6,702 bases of DNA, taken from a virus. Taxonomy: Duplodnaviria; Heunggongvirae; Uroviricota; Caudoviricetes. The stretch lies in the IMG/VR virus record IMGVR_UViG_2565956721_000006. One strand, written 5' to 3'. The position numbers and the translations under genes were made by a program. Shown here in pieces: positions 1-6,702 of the stretch; positions within the stretch are counted from its first letter, which is position 1, and every line of letters begins with the position of its first letter. Below the pieces are notes generated by a model, which was not told where the DNA came from, ran no database searches, and saw nothing but the letters and a program-made list of their open reading frames with translations.

Positions 1-162
1 ATGCTGGCGAACCCAGACACGCAGAGTCTCCGGCGTACAGCCAATCTTTGGAGCAATGGAACAAATTGTCGCCCATTGTGAGTCATATTCGCTCTGACTT
101 TCCAGAACCATACGGACTGCCCGTTGACGGACTTCGGGGGAAAAACGAGTATTTTTAGTCAT
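1..162 (-). CDS. IS3-family transposase OrfA, N-terminal 54 codons (partial; continues past window start)
   Basis: Minus-strand translation from ATG (162-160): [54 protein letters not shown], recognised as the helix-turn-helix N-terminus of IS3-family OrfA. Below the length cut-off of the ORF track because it is cut by the window edge. Confidence 0.8.
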
Positions 163-216
163 CCTGTTTACCTCTTTCTCAGGAAGTTTAGTCTCCAGGA
201 TTCCCGGGGCGGTTCA
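1..216 (-). mobile_element. Partial IS3-family insertion sequence (IS629/IS1203-like), one terminal end at 216; rest lies beyond window start
   Basis: Minus strand from 216 reads TGAACCGCCCCGGGAATCCTGGAGACTAAACTTCCTGAGAAAGAGGTAAACAGG then ATG at 162. The 5'-TG terminus and leader before the transposase ATG match my recollection of the IS629/IS1203 end. Exact IS name needs an ISfinder search. Confidence 0.7.
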
Positions 217-540
217 AGTTAACGAATCAAACAAATCTTGCACATATTTTTCTTCTTTAGATTTGCGCTTCTGAGCAGCGAATACCTCAATTCTTTCAGT
301 CACAGCGTGATAAGCGGAATTAACAACGCCGTTAAGCACATAGCTAACGCAAAACAACAGGATGTAATACATCCAGTAATGAGGAAGGATTTCTGGATTA
401 TGCAGGTTTATCCATTCTTTTACGCTTACCGGCATAACAATAATCAATATGATCAGGATGATTAGCATATGAATCAACTGTTTAAGTGTCATTCCTTGCA
501 GGAAAAAATGCATTAGTTCCTGCCACCATGAGTTGTTCAT
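214..540 (-). CDS. sieB: Superinfection exclusion protein SieB, C-terminally truncated at the IS junction (108 aa)
   Basis: ORF-track protein MNNSWWQELMHFFLQGMTLKQLIHMLIILI... matches the lambda SieB N-terminus as I recall it; hydrophobic membrane segments present. No in-frame upstream start before stop at 582-580. Stop codon TGA (216-214) is the first three bases of the IS terminal repeat. Lambda SieB is substantially longer (about 190 aa, from memory). Confidence 0.75.
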   Translation of the reverse strand: MNNSWWQELMHFFLQGMTLKQLIHMLIILIILIIVMPVSVKEWINLHNPEILPHYWMYYILLFCVSYVLNGVVNSAYHAVTERIEVFAAQKRKSKEEKYVQDLFDSLT

Positions 541-683
541 CGGCGTTTCTCTTTTGCTCTCTGTAGGGGTGAATAGAGTTTATCCGATTTCTCGTTGTAG
601 GGGTACACGAGAACCACCGAGCCTGATGTGGTTAAAAGACAGGCACAATCTTTACTACCGCAATCCACTATTTAAGGTGATAT
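541..683. promoter_or_regulatory. Divergent intergenic region between sieB and orf28/ral; expected site of the sieB promoter; contains a 9-bp direct repeat TGTAGGGGT (562-570 and 596-604)
   Basis: Position between divergently oriented sieB and orf28/ral. Repeat seen directly in sequence. No confident -35/-10 assignment could be made by eye. Confidence 0.3.
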
Positions 684-770
684 ATGGAAGAAGAATTTGA
701 AGAGTTCGAAGAGCATCCTCAAGATGTGATGGAACAATACCAGGACTATCCGTATGACTACGACTATTGA
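684..770 (+). CDS. lambda orf28-like acidic 28-aa peptide, overlaps ral start
   Basis: ATG 684 to TGA 768-770 translates MEEEFEEFEEHPQDVMEQYQDYPYDYDY. Size and position (87 bp, overlapping ral start by 17 nt) match my recollection of the lambda orf28 annotation. Below ORF-track cut-off. Confidence 0.5.
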   Translation: MEEEFEEFEEHPQDVMEQYQDYPYDYDY

Positions 771-954
771 TACAAATCAATGGTGTGGACAATTCAAACG
801 ATGCAATGGATGCAAGCTGCAATCGGAATGCATGGTTAAGCCTGAAGAAATGTTTCCTGTAATGGAAGATGGGAAATATGTCGATAAATGGGCAATACGA
901 ACGACGGCAATGATTGCCAGAGAACTTGGTAAACAGAACAACAAAGCTGCCTGA
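754..954 (+). CDS. ral: Ral, restriction alleviation protein (modulates type I restriction-modification)
   Basis: 66-aa product MTTTIDTNQWCGQFKRCNGCKLQSECMVKPEEMFPVMEDGKYVDKWAIRTTAMIARELGKQNNKAA, essentially the lambda Ral sequence as I recall it; conserved position upstream of ea10. Confidence 0.9.
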   Translation: MTTTIDTNQWCGQFKRCNGCKLQSECMVKPEEMFPVMEDGKYVDKWAIRTTAMIARELGKQNNKAA

Positions 955-1088
955 TAGTGGCCTTTATTTTTGGCATAAATAACAGAATAAACACTGCACT
1001 GTGTATTCATTCCAACGAGTGAATACACGGAGCAATGTCGCTCGTAACTAAACAGGAGCCGACTTGTTCTGATTATTGGAAATCTTCT

Positions 1089-1116
1089 TTGCCCTCCAGT
1101 GTGAGGGCGATTTTTT
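1089..1116 (+). terminator. Putative intrinsic terminator between ral and ea10 (tL2-like position in the pL operon)
   Basis: Stem TTGCCCTC (1089-1096), loop CAGTGT, stem GAGGGCGA (1103-1110) with one G-U pair, immediately followed by TTTTTT (1111-1116), on the transcribed strand. Confidence 0.45.
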
Positions 1117-1136
1117 ATCTATGAGGATATGAATAG

Positions 1137-1505
1137 ATGTCAAACATCAAAAAATACATCATTGATTACGACTGGAAAGCATCAATAGAAATTGAAATTG
1201 ACCATGACGTAATGACAGAGGAAAAACTTCACCAGATTAATAATTTCTGGTCAGACTCTGAATACCGACTCAATAAACACGGCTCTGTATTAAATGCTGT
1301 ATTAATCATGCTGGCGCAACATGCTCTGCTTATAGCAATTTCAAGCGACTTAAATGCATATGGTGTTGTGTGTGAGTTCGACTGGAATGATGGAAATGGT
1401 CAGGAAGGATGGCCTCCAATGGATGGTAGTGAAGGAATAAGAATTACCGATATCGATACATCAGGAATATTTGATTCAGATGATATGACTATCAAGGCCG
1501 CCTGA
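1137..1505 (+). CDS. ea10: Ea10 early protein (lambda ea10)
   Basis: 122-aa ORF at the lambda ea10 position between ral and cIII; length identical to lambda Ea10 as I recall; acidic C-terminal half. Confidence 0.8.
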   Translation: MSNIKKYIIDYDWKASIEIEIDHDVMTEEKLHQINNFWSDSEYRLNKHGSVLNAVLIMLAQHALLIAISSDLNAYGVVCEFDWNDGNGQEGWPPMDGSEGIRITDIDTSGIFDSDDMTIKAA

Positions 1506-1530
1506 GCGCGGCGTTACCGCATACCAATTA

Positions 1531-1551
1531 CGCTTCACTCGAGGCGTTTTT
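1531..1551 (+). terminator. Putative intrinsic terminator between ea10 and cIII (tL3-like position)
   Basis: CGCTTC (1531-1536), loop ACTC, GAGGCG (1541-1546) with one G-U pair, followed by TTTTT (1547-1551); strong Shine-Dalgarno AAGGAG for cIII lies just downstream. Confidence 0.4.
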
Positions 1552-1577
1552 CGTTATGTATAAATAAGGAGCACACC

Positions 1578-1742
1578 ATGCAATATGCCATTGCAGGGTG
1601 GCCTGTTGCTGGCTGCCCTTCCGAATCTTTACTTGAACGAATCACCCGTAAATTACGTGACGGATGGAAACGCCTTATCGACATACTTAATCAGCCAGGA
1701 GTCCCAAAAAATGGATCAAACAATTATGGCTATCCAGACTAA
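1578..1742 (+). CDS. cIII: CIII, inhibitor of FtsH-mediated CII degradation
   Basis: ATG 1578 to TAA 1740-1742 translates [54 protein letters not shown] (54 aa), matching lambda CIII from memory. Preceded by AAGGAG. Missing from the ORF track because it is under the length cut-off. Confidence 0.9.
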   Translation: MQYAIAGWPVAGCPSESLLERITRKLRDGWKRLIDILNQPGVPKNGSNNYGYPD

Positions 1743-1854
1743 ATTCACTATCGCCACTTTTATTGGCGATGAAAAGATGTTTCGTGAGGCCGTCGACGCT
1801 TATAAAAAATGGATATTAATACTGAAACTGAGATCAAGCAAAAGCATTCACTAA
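1711..1854 (+). CDS. kil: Kil, host cell-division inhibitor
   Basis: Internal ATG at 1711 of the 1585..1854 track ORF gives [47 protein letters not shown] (47 aa), matching lambda Kil; overlaps the cIII stop and the gam upstream start as in lambda. Confidence 0.85.
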
Positions 1855-1929
1855 CCCCCTTTCCTGTTTTCCTAATCAGCCTGGCATTTCGCGGGCGATA
1901 TTTTCACAGCCATTTTCAGGAGTTCAGCC

Positions 1930-2226
1930 ATGAACGCTTATTACATTCAGGATCGTCTTGAGGCTCAGAGCTGGGCGCGTCACTACCAGCAGATCGCCCG
2001 TGAAGAGAAAGAGGCAGAACTGGCAGACGACATGGAAAAAGGCCTGCCCCAGCACCTGTTTGAATCGCTATGCATCGATCATTTACAACGCCACGGGGCC
2101 AGCAAAAAAGCCATTACCCGTGCGTTTGATGACGATGTTGAGTTTCAGGAGCGCATGGCAGAACACATCCGGTACATAGTTGAAACCATTGCTCACCATC
2201 AGGCTGATATTGATTCAGAGGTATAA
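1930..2226 (+). CDS. gam: Gam (GamS form), RecBCD nuclease inhibitor
   Basis: 98-aa product [44 protein letters not shown]... matches lambda GamS with a few substitutions. The upstream GamL start (ATG 1809) is in a different frame here (see findings). Confidence 0.9.
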
Positions 2227-2231
2227 AACGG

Positions 2232-3017
2232 ATGAGTACAGCACTCGCAACGCTGGCAGGGAAGCTGGCTGAACGTGTCGGCATGGATTCTGTCGACCCA
2301 CAGGAACTGATCACCACTCTTCGCCAGACGGCATTTAAAGGTGATGCCAGCGATGCGCAGTTCATCGCATTGTTGATCGTCGCCAACCAGTACGGCCTTA
2401 ATCCGTGGACGAAAGAAATTTACGCCTTCCCTGATAAGCAGAACGGCATTGTTCCGGTGGTGGGCGTTGATGGCTGGTCCCGCATCATCAATGAAAACCA
2501 GCAGTTTGATGGTATGGACTTTGAGCAGGACAATGAATCATGTACATGCCGGATTTACCGCAAAGACCGCAATCATCCGATCTGCGTTACCGAGTGGATG
2601 GATGAATGCCGCCGCGAACCATTCAAAACCCGCGAAGGCAGAGAAATCACGGGGCCGTGGCAGTCGCATCCCAAACGGATGTTACGGCATAAAGCCATGA
2701 TTCAGTGTGCCCGTCTGGCCTTCGGATTTGCTGGTATCTATGACAAGGATGAAGCCGAGCGCATTGTCGAAAATACCGCATACACTGCAGAACGTCAGCC
2801 GGAACGCGACATCACTCCGGTTAACGATGAAACCATGCAGGAGATTAACACTCTGCTGATTGCCCTGGACAAAACATGGGATGACGACTTATTGCCGCTC
2901 TGTTCCCAGATATTTCGCCGCGACATTCGCGCATCGTCAGAACTGACACAGGCCGAAGCAGTGAAAGCTCTTGGATTCCTGAAACAGAAAGCCACTGAGC
3001 AGAAGGTGGCAGCATGA
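2232..3017 (+). CDS. bet: Bet (Red-beta) single-strand annealing recombinase
   Basis: 261-aa product [66 protein letters not shown]... recognised as lambda Bet; ATGA start/stop overlap with exo at 3014-3017. Confidence 0.95.
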
Positions 3018-3694
3018 CACCGGACATTATCCTGCAGCGTACCGGGATCGACGTGAGAGCTGTCGAACAGGGGGATGATGCATGGCACAAATTACGGCTC
3101 GGCGTCATCACCGCTTCAGAAGTTCACAACGTGATAGCAAAGCCCCGCTCAGGAAAGAAGTGGCCTGACATGAAAATGTCCTACTTCCACACCCTGCTGG
3201 CTGAGGTTTGCACCGGTGTGGCTCCGGAAGTTAATGCTAAGGCGCTGGCGTGGGGAAAACAGTACGAGAACGACGCCAGAACCCTGTTTGAATTCACTTC
3301 CGGCGTGAATGTTACTGAATCCCCGATCATCTATCGCGACGAAAGTATGCGCACCGCCTGCTCTCCCGATGGTTTATGCAGTGACGGCAATGGCCTTGAG
3401 CTGAAATGCCCGTTTACCTCCCGGGATTTCATGAAGTTCCGGCTCGGTGGTTTCGAGGCCATAAAGTCGGCTTACATGGCCCAGGTGCAGTACAGCATGT
3501 GGGTGACACGAAAAGATGCCTGGTACTTTGCCAACTATGACCCACGAATGAAGCGTGAAGGCCTGCATTATGTCGTGGTTGAGCGGGATGAAAAGTACAT
3601 GGCGAGTTTTGACGAGATGGTGCCGGAGTTCATCGAAAAAATGGACGAAGCACTGGCTGAAATTGGTTTTGTATTTGGAGAGCAATGGCGATGA
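3014..3694 (+). CDS. exo: Exo (Red-alpha) 5'-3' dsDNA exonuclease
   Basis: 226-aa product [65 protein letters not shown]... recognised as lambda Exo; the same length as lambda Exo. Confidence 0.95.
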
Positions 3695-3873
3695 CCCATC
3701 CTCACGATAATATCCGGGTAGGCGCGATCACTTTCGTCTACTCCGTTACAAAGCGAGGCTGGGTATTTCACGGTCTTTCTGTTATCCGAAATCCGCTGAA
3801 AGCCCAGCGGCTGGCTGAGGAGATAAATAATAAACGGGGGGCGGTATGCACAAAGCATCTCCTGTTGAGTTAA
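3691..3873 (+). CDS. lambda orf60a-like hypothetical protein
   Basis: ATG 3691 overlaps the exo stop (ATGA); 60-aa product [60 protein letters not shown]. The track lists an earlier in-frame ATG at 3685. Position and size match the lambda orf60a annotation. Confidence 0.75.
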
Positions 3874-4037
3874 GAACGAGTATTGATTTGGCACATAGCC
3901 TTGCTCAAATTGGAGTCAGGTTTGTGCCAATACCAGCAGAAACAGACGAAGAATTTCATACGTTAGCCACATCCCTTTCACAAAAGCTGGAAATGATGGT
4001 GGCGAAAGCAGAAGCAGATGAGAGAGACCAGGTATGA
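3846..4037 (+). CDS. lambda orf63-like hypothetical protein
   Basis: 63-aa ORF overlapping the orf60a 3' end by 28 nt, the overlap I recall for lambda orf63/orf60a. Confidence 0.75.
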   Translation: MHKASPVELRTSIDLAHSLAQIGVRFVPIPAETDEEFHTLATSLSQKLEMMVAKAEADERDQV

Positions 4038-4047
4038 CAACCACTGA

Positions 4048-4230
4048 ATGCATTTTTCTGGCAGCGGGCTTCATATTCTGTGTGCTTATGCTTGCCGACA
4101 TGGGGCTTGTTCAGTGACACCTCAGCAAGAAAACGCCCTTCGCAGCATTGCCCGTCAGGCTAATTCTGAAATCAAAAAAGTCAGACAGCAGTTTCCAAAA
4201 ACGTCAATGACATTTGCCGTAGCGTACTGA
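4048..4230 (+). CDS. Hypothetical 60-aa ORF in the orf61-equivalent region; reading frame uncertain
   Basis: Track ORF MHFSGSGLHILCAYACRHGACSV...; an ATG at 4018 (expected lambda orf61 start) runs into TGA at 4045-4047 after 9 codons. A competing frame (4034..4117) encodes the hydrophobic peptide MTTTECIFLAAGFIFCVLMLADMGLVQ. Coding assignment here is ambiguous. Confidence 0.3.
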   Translation: MHFSGSGLHILCAYACRHGACSVTPQQENALRSIARQANSEIKKVRQQFPKTSMTFAVAY

Positions 4231-4423
4231 AGAAGCACCGCGAAACGGTAACGCTGAAGGGATTCACACCGACTCATTTAAGCCTGGCAATCGGCATGTT
4301 AAACGGCGTCTTTAAGGAACGATGAACATGAAAAGCAAAATTATCAGGGAGCTACAGGCTCCTTTTTTATTGTTCGCATTCACCCTCAAGCGTATTAACC
4401 AACAGTTCAGGGATTAATGAAAG

Positions 4424-4645
4424 ATGGCAGACATCATTGATTCAGCATCAGAAATAGAAGAATTACAGCGCAACACAGCAATAAAAATGCGCCGCCTGAA
4501 CTACCTGGCTGTATCTGCCACTCATTGTTGTGAGTGTGGCGATCCGATAGATGAACGAAGACGCCTGGCCGTTCAGGGTTGTCGGACTTGCGCCAGTTGC
4601 CAGCAAGATCTGGAGCTTATCCGCAAACAAAGGGGGATTAAGTGA
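4424..4645 (+). CDS. TraR/DksA-family C4 zinc-finger protein (lambda Orf73-like RNA polymerase-binding regulator)
   Basis: 73-aa product with CxC-x14-CxxCxxC (CCEC...CRTCASC) and GDPIDERRR motif resembling F-plasmid TraR CEACGNPIPEARRK; located where lambda encodes Orf73, just upstream of ea22. Confidence 0.75.
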   Translation: MADIIDSASEIEELQRNTAIKMRRLNYLAVSATHCCECGDPIDERRRLAVQGCRTCASCQQDLELIRKQRGIK

Positions 4646-4971
4646 TGGCTAACCTGCAACTTGCTGTTAAAAGTGAATACTTCGATGCCATGATTCGCGG
4701 AGAGAAAACGGAAGAGTATCGCTTGTGTAATGACTACTGGAATAAGCGAATTATGTTCCGGGAATATGACCGCCTGATTATCACAAAGGGATATCCGAAG
4801 CGCGACGATTCCAGTCGCAGAATTGATGTTCCGTATGACGGATATGAAGTGAAGACAATCACACATCCGCACTTTGGCGATAAACCGGTAAAGGTGTTCG
4901 CTATAAAGGTGAATATCAGCACTGAATATCAATCCGCACAACACAAGGTCAAGAATGTTCAGAGTGATTGA
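4645..4971 (+). CDS. ea22-like N-terminal ORF with ASCH/PUA-like motif (GxKxxExR)
   Basis: ATG 4645 overlaps the orf73 stop (TGATG); the track starts at GTG 4642. Product MANLQLAVKSEYFDAMIRGEKTEEYR... contains RGEKTEEYR, which fits the ASCH signature GxKxxExR. Start coincides with the lambda ea22 start by coordinate correspondence. Confidence 0.55.
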   Translation: MANLQLAVKSEYFDAMIRGEKTEEYRLCNDYWNKRIMFREYDRLIITKGYPKRDDSSRRIDVPYDGYEVKTITHPHFGDKPVKVFAIKVNISTEYQSAQHKVKNVQSD

Positions 4972-5194
4972 CCCTAACACCTGGTACGTCGACCACCACG
5001 GCACTCCCTGCAAAATCCTGCGTTCTACCCACAACAAAGTTCACTACATCCGAAAAGGCAGAACATGTATCGCCAGCATGTTCCGCTTTAATCATGACTT
5101 TGAACCTGTGAATAAAGCTGATGCAGATCGGATAGCAGAAGAGATCGAAACGGCAGAACACATTAAGAAGTTACGTGACATGCGCAGGAAATAG
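4955..5194 (+). CDS. ea22-like C-terminal ORF (+1 frame relative to 4645..4971), possible frameshifted continuation
   Basis: 79-aa ORF MFRVIDPNTWYVDHHG... with helical charged C-terminus. Its frame is open upstream to 4913 and overlaps the preceding ORF. Combined span 4645..5194 is 550 bp against 549 bp for lambda ea22 (from memory). Confidence 0.45.
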   Translation: MFRVIDPNTWYVDHHGTPCKILRSTHNKVHYIRKGRTCIASMFRFNHDFEPVNKADADRIAEEIETAEHIKKLRDMRRK

Positions 5195-5333
5195 AAAAAT
5201 TGATAAATTCAATACTGCATTTCTCAGCATTAAATTTATCTCTATGACCAGTCAAGAGATGTACCTGCCATGAGCTTAATATCATGTCAGATATATCGGT
5301 CACAAACTCCCTCAGCAGCTAAGAGGAGGACAA

Positions 5334-5570
5334 ATGTCTCGACTAATCACTTTACAGGACTGGGCTAAAGAAGAATTTGGGGACTTAGCACCAAGTGAGC
5401 GAGTTCTGAAAAAATACGCGCAAGGGAAAATGATGGCCCCACCCGCTATAAAAGTTGGTCGCTACTGGATGATTGACCGAAATTCCCGTTTTGTAGGAAC
5501 GCTTGCAGAACCGCAACTCCCAATAAACGCAAACCCAAAACTCCAAAGGATAATCGCTGATGGCTGCTAG
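5334..5570 (+). CDS. xis: Excisionase (Xis), lambda-type
   Basis: 78-aa product MSRLITLQDWAKEEF...PPAIKVGRYWMI resembles lambda Xis (MYLTLQEW...PPPVKDGREYLF). Strong SD AAGAGGAGGA at 5316-5325. 3' end overlaps the int start by 11 nt, as xis-int pairs typically do. Confidence 0.8.
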   Translation: MSRLITLQDWAKEEFGDLAPSERVLKKYAQGKMMAPPAIKVGRYWMIDRNSRFVGTLAEPQLPINANPKLQRIIADGC

Positions 5571-6702
5571 ACCCCGATCTCACAAAATCTCTATACCCAA
5601 TTTATATTGCAAATTAGATAAGCGAACCGGAAAGGTATATTGGCAATACAAACATCCACTATCCGGTCGTTTTCATAGCTTAGGAACTGATGAGAATGAA
5701 GCAAAACAAGTTGCTACTGAAGCAAATACCATTATTGCTGAACAACGTACCAGACAAATATTAAGCGTCAATGAGCGTCTGGAAAGAATGAAAGGCAGGC
5801 GCTCAGACATTACGGTGACAGAATGGCTTGATAAATATATTTCTATCCAAGAGGACAGGCTGCAACATAATGAACTAAGACCCAACTCCTATCGGCAAAA
5901 AGGCAAACCCATTCGTCTTTTCCGTGAGCATTGTGGAATGCAACACCTCAAGGATATTACCGCACTTGATATTGCCGAAATAATTGATGCTGTAAAGGCT
6001 GAAGGTCATAACAGGATGGCGCAAGTCGTGAGAATGGTGTTGATCGACGTCTTCAAAGAAGCACAACACGCAGGACATGTTCCGCCAGGATTTAACCCAG
6101 CGCAGGCAACAAAACAACCGCGAAATCGAGTAAACCGCCAAAGATTGTCACTGCCCGAATGGCAGGCAATATTTGACAGCGTAAGCAGACGGCAGCCCTA
6201 TTTAAAATGCGGCATGCTACTTGCTCTTGTTACTGGACAACGTTTAGGCGATATCTGCAATTTGAAATTCTCTGATATATGGGACGACATGTTGCACATT
6301 ACTCAGGAAAAAACCGGTTCAAAACTTGCTATTCCGCTTAACCTGAAATGCGATGCTCTGAATATTACCCTTCGTGAAGTTATATCTCAGTGCAGGGATG
6401 CTGTTGTTAGTAAATATCTGGTCCATTACCGTCACACTACCTCTCAAGCAAACAGAGGAGACCAGGTTTCTGCGAATACTCTGACAACGGCTTTTAAAAA
6501 GGCCCGGGAAAAATGTGGCATAAAATGGGAGCAAGGAACTGCGCCCACATTTCATGAGCAGCGATCTCTGTCAGAACGGTTATATCGGGAACAGGGTCTG
6601 GATACGCAAAAGTTGTTAGGCCATAAATCCAGAAAAATGACCGACCGATACAATGATGATCGTGGTAAAGACTGGATTATCGTAGATATCAAAACAGCAT
6701 AG
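5560..6702 (+). CDS. int: Tyrosine site-specific integrase (lambda Int family, non-lambda allele)
   Basis: 380-aa product; C-terminal catalytic motifs LALVTGQRLGDI, FHEQRSLSERLY, LLGHKS, RYNDDRG align with lambda Int R212, H308/R311, H333 and Y342 blocks. N-terminal half differs from lambda Int. Window ends at its stop codon. Confidence 0.95.
   Translation: MAARPRSHKISIPNLYCKLDKRTGKVYWQYKHPLSGRFHSLGTDENEAKQVATEANTIIAEQRTRQILSVNERLERMKGRRSDITVTEWLDKYISIQEDRLQHNELRPNSYRQKGKPIRLFREHCGMQHLKDITALDIAEIIDAVKAEGHNRMAQVVRMVLIDVFKEAQHAGHVPPGFNPAQATKQPRNRVNRQRLSLPEWQAIFDSVSRRQPYLKCGMLLALVTGQRLGDICNLKFSDIWDDMLHITQEKTGSKLAIPLNLKCDALNITLREVISQCRDAVVSKYLVHYRHTTSQANRGDQVSANTLTTAFKKAREKCGIKWEQGTAPTFHEQRSLSERLYREQGLDTQKLLGHKSRKMTDRYNDDRGKDWIIVDIKTA

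Follow-up and report, generated by a model that had tools for sequence, protein, structure and literature searches.

The closest described gam gene is that of phage lambda (NC_001416, 32816–33232), which encodes a long protein of 138 aa (GamL) and a short one of 98 aa (GamS). Both have been reported as lambda isoforms (PMC5218532; PMC11610958). GamS by itself is sufficient to inhibit RecBCD, as shown structurally and in vivo; GamL is active too, and in some Klebsiella pneumoniae strains it was at least as effective as GamS (PMC5218532). The N-terminal extension is therefore not necessarily inert where it is present. Solved structures exist for GamS (2UUZ/2UV1) and for GamS with RecBCD (5MBV). 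In the Stx2-converting phage 86 (NC_008464), a 'gam' of 297 nt and a 'gam alternate' of 153 nt are annotated, and Escherichia phage ev017 has the same pair of 153-nt and 297-nt ORFs.

Here, we analysed a stretch of 6,702 nt, referred to as the window. With a probability of roughly 90%, its lambdoid gam gene has the common 'GamS-only' haplotype, in which the 98-codon ORF at 1930–2226 is the functional gene.

Gene layout of the window

The ORFs, the Pfam matches and the annotation of an identical prophage show that the window, on its + strand, covers the early leftward (pL-type) arm of a lambdoid prophage (Table 1). Positions 217–6702 were 100% identical to the prophage beside icd in Escherichia coli APEC O18 and to other independent complete genomes. 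The Red recombination genes bet and exo lie downstream of gamS in the same operon.

Table 1. Coordinates of the features discussed (window numbering)
Feature	Position	Strand	Basis or remark
IS end	1–216		
sieB, truncated	214–540	minus	
ral	754–954	+	
ea10-like	1137–1505	+	
cIII	1578–1742	+	
kil, 47 aa	1711–1854	+	Pfam Lambda_Kil PF06301, 68.6 bits; PGAP kil there in the APEC O18 prophage
Upstream ORF, 50 codons	1809–1961	+	ORF list and lambda alignment
kil-gamS leader, 75 nt	1855–1929	+	kil stop codon to gamS start
Terminator-like hairpin	1879–1904	+	Consensus scan and RNA folds, both alleles
Haplotype-defining site	1911–1916	+	Lambda alignment; allele-specific 40-mer searches
gamS Shine-Dalgarno AGGAG	1918–1922	+	Sequence; anti-Shine-Dalgarno energy
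gamS (Gam, RecBCD inhibitor), 98 aa	1930–2226	+	Pfam PF06064; PGAP 297-nt CDS
bet	2232–3017	+	ORF; annotation of identical prophage; Red recombination gene
exo	3014–3694	+	ORF; annotation of identical prophage; Red recombination gene
Several small ORFs	between exo and xis		
xis	5334–5570	+	
int	5560–6702	+	

The integrase ORF closes at the last base of the window, and the next gene in the identical prophages is icd (isocitrate dehydrogenase), next to which the prophage of the window is placed by its sequence. At the other end, the window begins with 216 nt from the end of a multicopy IS; this sequence has 24,242 places across 6,123 E. coli records, many of them plasmid-borne. We think that this is a putative IS3-family element; its minus strand holds the start of a transposase-like ORF. 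The IS shortens sieB to 108 aa; the APEC O18 prophage, which is identical otherwise, has a sieB of 193 aa. A database protein (P0005) consists of a read-out of the IS end, nearly identical to the window ORF 124–222, fused to Gam residues 29–98. Therefore, the same kind of IS was inserted inside gam in another genome.

Further features were seen on the + strand. The Rfam lambda cIII thermoregulator (RF01804) matched at 1565–1623, across the cIII start, with 88.5 bits (gathering score: 50). PGAP marks a pseudogene, 'cell division protein ZapA, frameshifted', in the identical prophage of APEC O18; it corresponds to window positions ~4114–4325, and the window ORF at 4048–4230 had a weak, sub-threshold Pfam match to ZapA (E = 0.0025). 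A 73-aa TraR/DksA-type zinc-finger protein (PF01258) is encoded at 4424–4645 and is apparently the counterpart of lambda Orf73, for which a 2022 mBio paper (PMC9239242) describes a reprogramming of host transcription.

Comparison of the gam locus with lambda and the Gam family

The locus resembles lambda in the gene order cIII-kil-gam-bet-exo and in an AGGAG motif with a 7-nt spacer before gamS. The ATG at 1809 overlaps kil by 46 nt in both genomes (lambda kil: 33187–33330), an overlap that the sequence-only reading had stated correctly, as it had the span from this ATG to the end of gam (1809–2226, 418 nt, compared with 417 nt in lambda). Over an alignment of 181 nt with NC_001416, the two sequences were ~98% identical at the DNA level, and the resemblance is thus not due to chance. 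The differences, visible directly in the alignment, were two substitutions (window/lambda: T/C at 1882 and C/T at 1911) and one InDel.

The frames were found exactly as they had been read from the letters. The ATG at 1809 opens an ORF of 50 codons that stops with TGA at 1959–1961, the gamS start at 1930 is in the +1 frame relative to it and opens 98 codons to 2226, and the gamS frame reads ...AIFRSSAM up to its start. Further upstream, this frame has a TAA at 1873–1875, and no ATG, GTG or TTG occurs between this stop and 1930. The first 36 codons of the 50-codon ORF are homologous to the N-terminus of lambda GamL (34 of 36 identical). Beyond these codons, the ORF crosses the gamS start in another frame and ends 29 nt past the gamS ATG.

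As the cause of the shift, the sequence-only reading had named one extra T in the run at 1913–1916, a claim that a run of the same length in lambda would have spoken against. It had suggested an alignment with lambda and a comparison with other lambdoid prophages. The alignment gave runs of different length, TTTT in the window and TTT in lambda (window: AGCCATTTTCAGG; lambda: AGCTA-TTTCAGG), and the TTTT allele turned out to recur widely in other genomes (see the following section). Hence, the extra T is the InDel. It is located 5' of the Shine-Dalgarno sequence and leaves AGGAG unaltered; the gamS initiation region is therefore the same in both haplotypes.

That only GamS can be made here also stands: a GamL of 138 aa cannot be encoded, and the 98-aa GamS ORF and its own AGGAG are intact. 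A GamL-type gene would have a 138-aa ORF with an in-frame ATG 40 codons upstream of the gamS start, whereas the frame of the ATG at 1809 is −1 with respect to gamS. The upstream ATG is in frame in lambda, which lacks the extra T and has a T at the position of 1911; instead of the 138-aa ORF, the window has the 50-codon ORF up to 1961. The locus is not a GamL-type gene.

The 98-aa protein matched the Pfam Gam profile (PF06064) with 211.7 bits (cut-off: 25) over residues 1–98 of the 98-position profile. The same profile matched residues 41–138 of the 138-aa lambda protein. Compared with these lambda residues, 94 of 98 positions were identical, the four conservative substitutions being L22I, S61A, M83I and V93A (GamS numbering). 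The PDB entries 5MBV and 2UUZ were matched over the full length (E = 3.5e-60), with 94–95% identity to the crystallised protein. The genomic context also agrees: gam lies just 5' of bet and exo in an early leftward operon with the order cIII-kil-gam-bet-exo...xis-int. By profile, structure match and context, the locus is to be regarded as a full member of the Gam family (PF06064). No NCBIfam model was found for Gam. From the 96% identity to a structurally solved protein, we infer that GamS of the window probably inhibits RecBCD as in lambda (PMC5218532), by binding the enzyme and blocking the site at which it binds DNA.

The conservation of the 98-aa form can be followed directly in diverged homologues. 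In seven loci with a Gam of 69–75% identity (Citrobacter, Klebsiella, Raoultella, Pseudescherichia and others), the protein always comprised 98 aa starting from the equivalent of Met41. Reading upstream in frame, either a stop followed within a few codons or no ATG was present, and none of the seven had an in-frame upstream ATG. AGGAG (AGGAA in L025) stood at the equivalent place in six of the seven, the upstream sequence of the seventh (L027) being different. The leaders of these outgroups mostly read AAATTTCAGGAG just 5' of the start and were otherwise unalignable and non-coding.

When 1.84 billion representative proteins were scanned with HMMER without filters, 73 relatives were obtained. 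Every full-length diverged relative (34–60% identity) was 95–101 aa long and aligned from its first residue, and the few longer relatives that were inspected were chimeric or junction artefacts. Among the homologues examined, no N-terminal extension was found outside the lambda haplotype. The ancestral gene is one without the long form, whichever of TTT and TTTT came first.

Some matches differed in other ways. Two loci (L020, E. coli ECMA0423; L021, Shigella flexneri SFBU1023) had a Gam of 81% identity without the usual ATG (...QSAYPIFDRIEE...). As they have no obvious start at the conserved position, they may be decayed copies in cryptic prophages. A Gam of 94–100% identity was found in assemblies labelled as Shewanella, Pseudomonas, Kitasatospora, Enterococcus, Oceanobacillus and others (L004–L019, L022–L023 and L031–L033). 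These off-taxon matches often lay on low-coverage contigs of ~48.4–48.5 kb, and the one that was checked (L008) had lambda's allele. They are almost certainly due to lambda control-DNA contamination of the assemblies.

Frequencies of the two haplotypes

The alleles were counted directly with 40-nt queries centred on the site. As megablast needs an exact 28-mer, which must span the InDel, each query was allele-specific. The haplotype of the window (C at 1911 with TTTT, C+TTTT) was found in 2,590 of 5,426 complete E. coli genomes (2,900 places) and that of lambda (T+TTT) in 889 (960 places), the genomes not being phylogenetically independent. T+TTTT occurred in two genomes (two places) and C+TTT in none (zero places). 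The T>C change at 1911 was thus tightly linked to the InDel, with the recombinant types in two and zero genomes. Among deposited phage genomes, 90 records had C+TTTT and 90 had T+TTT.

TTTT was confirmed by alignment in Escherichia phage ev017 and Stx2 phage 86. Both have the identical C+TTTT, and nothing relevant differs at the gam locus; the rest of their genomes is mosaic. Phage ev017 was 100% identical over window positions 1740–2230. BP-4795 and many other Stx1 and Stx2 phages matched the region at 98–99%. PGAP annotated a 98-aa gam CDS in the identical prophage, without a pseudogene flag, and called the 98-aa gam even in a genome with lambda's allele. In a literature search on natural gam alleles, no paper tabulating both alleles was found.

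These counts bear on the idea that the extra T is a homopolymer error of sequencing or assembly and that the genome really has a lambda-like sequence encoding GamL. The position of the InDel within a T run fits such an error. However, 2,590 complete E. coli genomes and 90 phage records share the exact 40-mer with TTTT and the linked C, and 217–6702 was identical (100%) to several independent complete genomes. An error would moreover yield T+TTTT, which was nearly absent (two genomes). A sequencing error is next to impossible and was rejected on the basis of the allele-specific counts and the linked SNP. C+TTTT and T+TTT are two old, stable haplotypes and not slippage noise.

The counts also weigh on a second explanation, namely that the prophage is decaying and that a recent, degenerative frameshift destroyed its 'full-length' gam and left a crippled remnant. 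The prophage does show other damage, namely the IS that truncates sieB at about 216 and the ZapA-like gene that PGAP flagged as frameshifted in the identical prophage. However, the allele is common to thousands of genomes and to deposited phage genomes, and GamS is intact, 96% identical to lambda's and the form found family-wide. A pseudogene or artefact would be expected as a private or sporadic break of an otherwise conserved ORF; here, 2,590 genomes and 90 phage records share the break, and the N-terminal extension that it disrupts is not a conserved part of the Gam family. We consider decay very unlikely. The word 'frameshifted', which the sequence-only reading had used for the extension, is literally true with respect to lambda, but it does not hold as the description of a defect, since in E. 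coli this allele outnumbers lambda's and GamS is the conserved form.

The leader, the upstream ORF and the meaning of the two haplotypes

The region upstream of gamS was classified in 288 IMG/VR loci, each with at least 300 nt of upstream sequence; the loci come from the matches listed, so the following numbers describe samples and not frequencies. Among these 288 matches listed, TTT was combined with a kil-type upstream gene and an intact 40-codon extension in 104 loci. In a further nine loci with TTT and a kil-type gene, the extension was broken by an independent 1-nt deletion in a C-run just past the kil stop, and eight loci had TTT and a different upstream gene. TTTT occurred with a kil-type gene in 68 loci and with an unrelated gene replacing kil in 92 (of the 160 TTTT loci listed). 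The remaining seven had neither T-run, with homology only from the ribosome-binding site on. An unrelated gene stood in the place of kil in 100 of the 288 listed loci, and homology resumed exactly at its TAA. In the one locus of this kind that was examined in detail (L115), the upstream gene encodes about 96 aa and the GamL frame contains no ATG.

The 75-nt leader was kept even where an unrelated gene replaced kil. Because it is retained with other upstream genes, 1855–1929 behaves as a non-coding leader of the gam module. The GamL start codon, judged from these arrangements, belongs to the kil module. In a separate observation, the kil stop (window 1852–1854) was TAC instead of TAA in about 35 of the 181 listed kil-type IMG/VR loci, which extends Kil.

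Polymorphisms in the leader fell on codon positions 1/2/3 in the proportion 9/19/8, with no third-position bias in a test that is underpowered. In the 25 extension codons outside kil, five non-synonymous and five synonymous variants were counted, a crude and sparse pN/pS that gave no coding signal but with which coding constraint is compatible. The most polymorphic leader site was 1882 (C, T, A or G, depending on the phage), in the stem of a GC-rich hairpin (GCCTG...CGGGC, 1879–1896; 5 bp, four of them G-C pairs) that is followed by GATATTTT. Lambda has a C at 1882, which gives a C-G pair in the stem, whereas the window has a T. The hairpin with its tail may be the counterpart of a lambda tL2 terminator (Luk & Szybalski 1983). 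The J02459 and NC_001416 records contained no terminator features confirming this idea, and nothing relevant was found in a literature search on tL2 terminators and lambda gam start-site usage.

The translation signals of the two starts differed. The AGGAG of gamS, at a 7-nt spacing, had an anti-Shine-Dalgarno duplex energy of −6.9 kcal/mol, which is typical of the genes of this operon (−4 to −12). The ATG at 1809 had no Shine-Dalgarno sequence and, with +0.4 kcal/mol, was the worst of 13 starts tested in the window. No Pfam or NCBIfam match was found for the 50-codon ORF. Its existence alone is not evidence of a gene, because the window has 75 ORFs of at least 30 aa. Most likely, the 50-codon ORF is untranslated or a by-product of the leader's frame and not a gene; that it has no function we infer from these signals.

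Alternatively, the 50-codon ORF could be translated and have a role of its own, as a small hydrophobic peptide or by tuning gamS through occlusion or termination-reinitiation. It is intact in the kil-type copies of C+TTTT, is annotated in one phage and ends 29 nt beyond the gamS ATG. Native lambda Gam was purified as subunits of roughly 16.5 kDa, which would mean that the ATG without a Shine-Dalgarno sequence is used. If so, the 50-codon ORF would be translated here as well, crossing the gamS start, and could modulate gamS initiation. Likewise, ribosomes start at this ATG if lambda makes GamL from it, as stated in PMC5218532 and PMC11610958. Against a role of the ORF stand the missing Shine-Dalgarno sequence with +0.4 kcal/mol, the missing family match and a polymorphism without codon-position bias (9/19/8). 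In addition, kil is replaced by another gene in 92 of the 160 listed TTTT loci, of which the one examined lacks the start codon of the ORF. A role of this kind is quite unlikely.

A GamL-like protein could also be restored if ribosomes underwent programmed +1 frameshifting at CAT TTT C (1910–1917), where a tRNA-Phe paired with UUU could slip onto UUC in the +1 frame, the frame of gamS. Although UUU-C is present, the other elements of such a site were absent: the 0-frame A-site codon is CAG, which is common and not slow, and no Shine-Dalgarno-like stimulator lies 3–10 nt upstream. Transcriptional slippage would need a longer run than four Ts. Neither the upstream ORF nor its start is conserved, as 92 of the 160 listed TTTT loci lack the kil-type region supplying the start codon (in L115, the one examined, there was no ATG), and the extension is not conserved either. 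Programmed frameshifting is highly improbable and was rejected on sequence context and the unconserved upstream start.

We return to the 'GamS-only' reading of the locus. In the proposed mechanism, gamS would be translated from its own AGGAG site on a pL-type early leftward transcript (cIII-kil-gam-bet-exo). GamS would inhibit RecBCD, and linear phage DNA would thereby be protected and Red recombination allowed. The 75 nt between the kil stop and the gamS start would serve as a non-coding leader. In the lambda haplotype, with one T fewer and the neighbouring T, this leader happens to be in frame with the kil-internal ATG, which gives the 138-aa GamL ORF. In the C+TTTT haplotype, it is out of frame, and just the 50-codon ORF without a Shine-Dalgarno sequence remains, which is probably no gene. 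GamL of lambda looks like a haplotype-specific accident of frame and not like a feature that was lost here.

Another interpretation is that T+TTT and C+TTTT form a maintained functional dimorphism, either with a young de novo GamL extension that alters potency or targets or with a translated 50-codon ORF that sets the GamS dose. If the first version were true, a non-coding leader would have come into frame with a kil-internal ATG and added 40 residues to the protein. If the second were true, the dose of GamS would be set by translational coupling or occlusion. We regard such a dimorphism as quite unlikely.

Public annotation already includes both the allele and the short protein, and the frame difference is real but ordinary. 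The existence of two natural alleles is a minor point, implicit in Pfam and PGAP practice. In practice, when lambda serves as the annotation reference, the more common of the natural alleles can be wrongly called 'frameshifted'. Moreover, what counts as 'full-length' GamL in lambda has an extension that is specific to its haplotype and not conserved across the Gam family, which supports the established practice of working with GamS (structures, a commercial reagent, PGAP gene calls). The locus is a normal, functional-looking gam gene, with little consequence for discovery.
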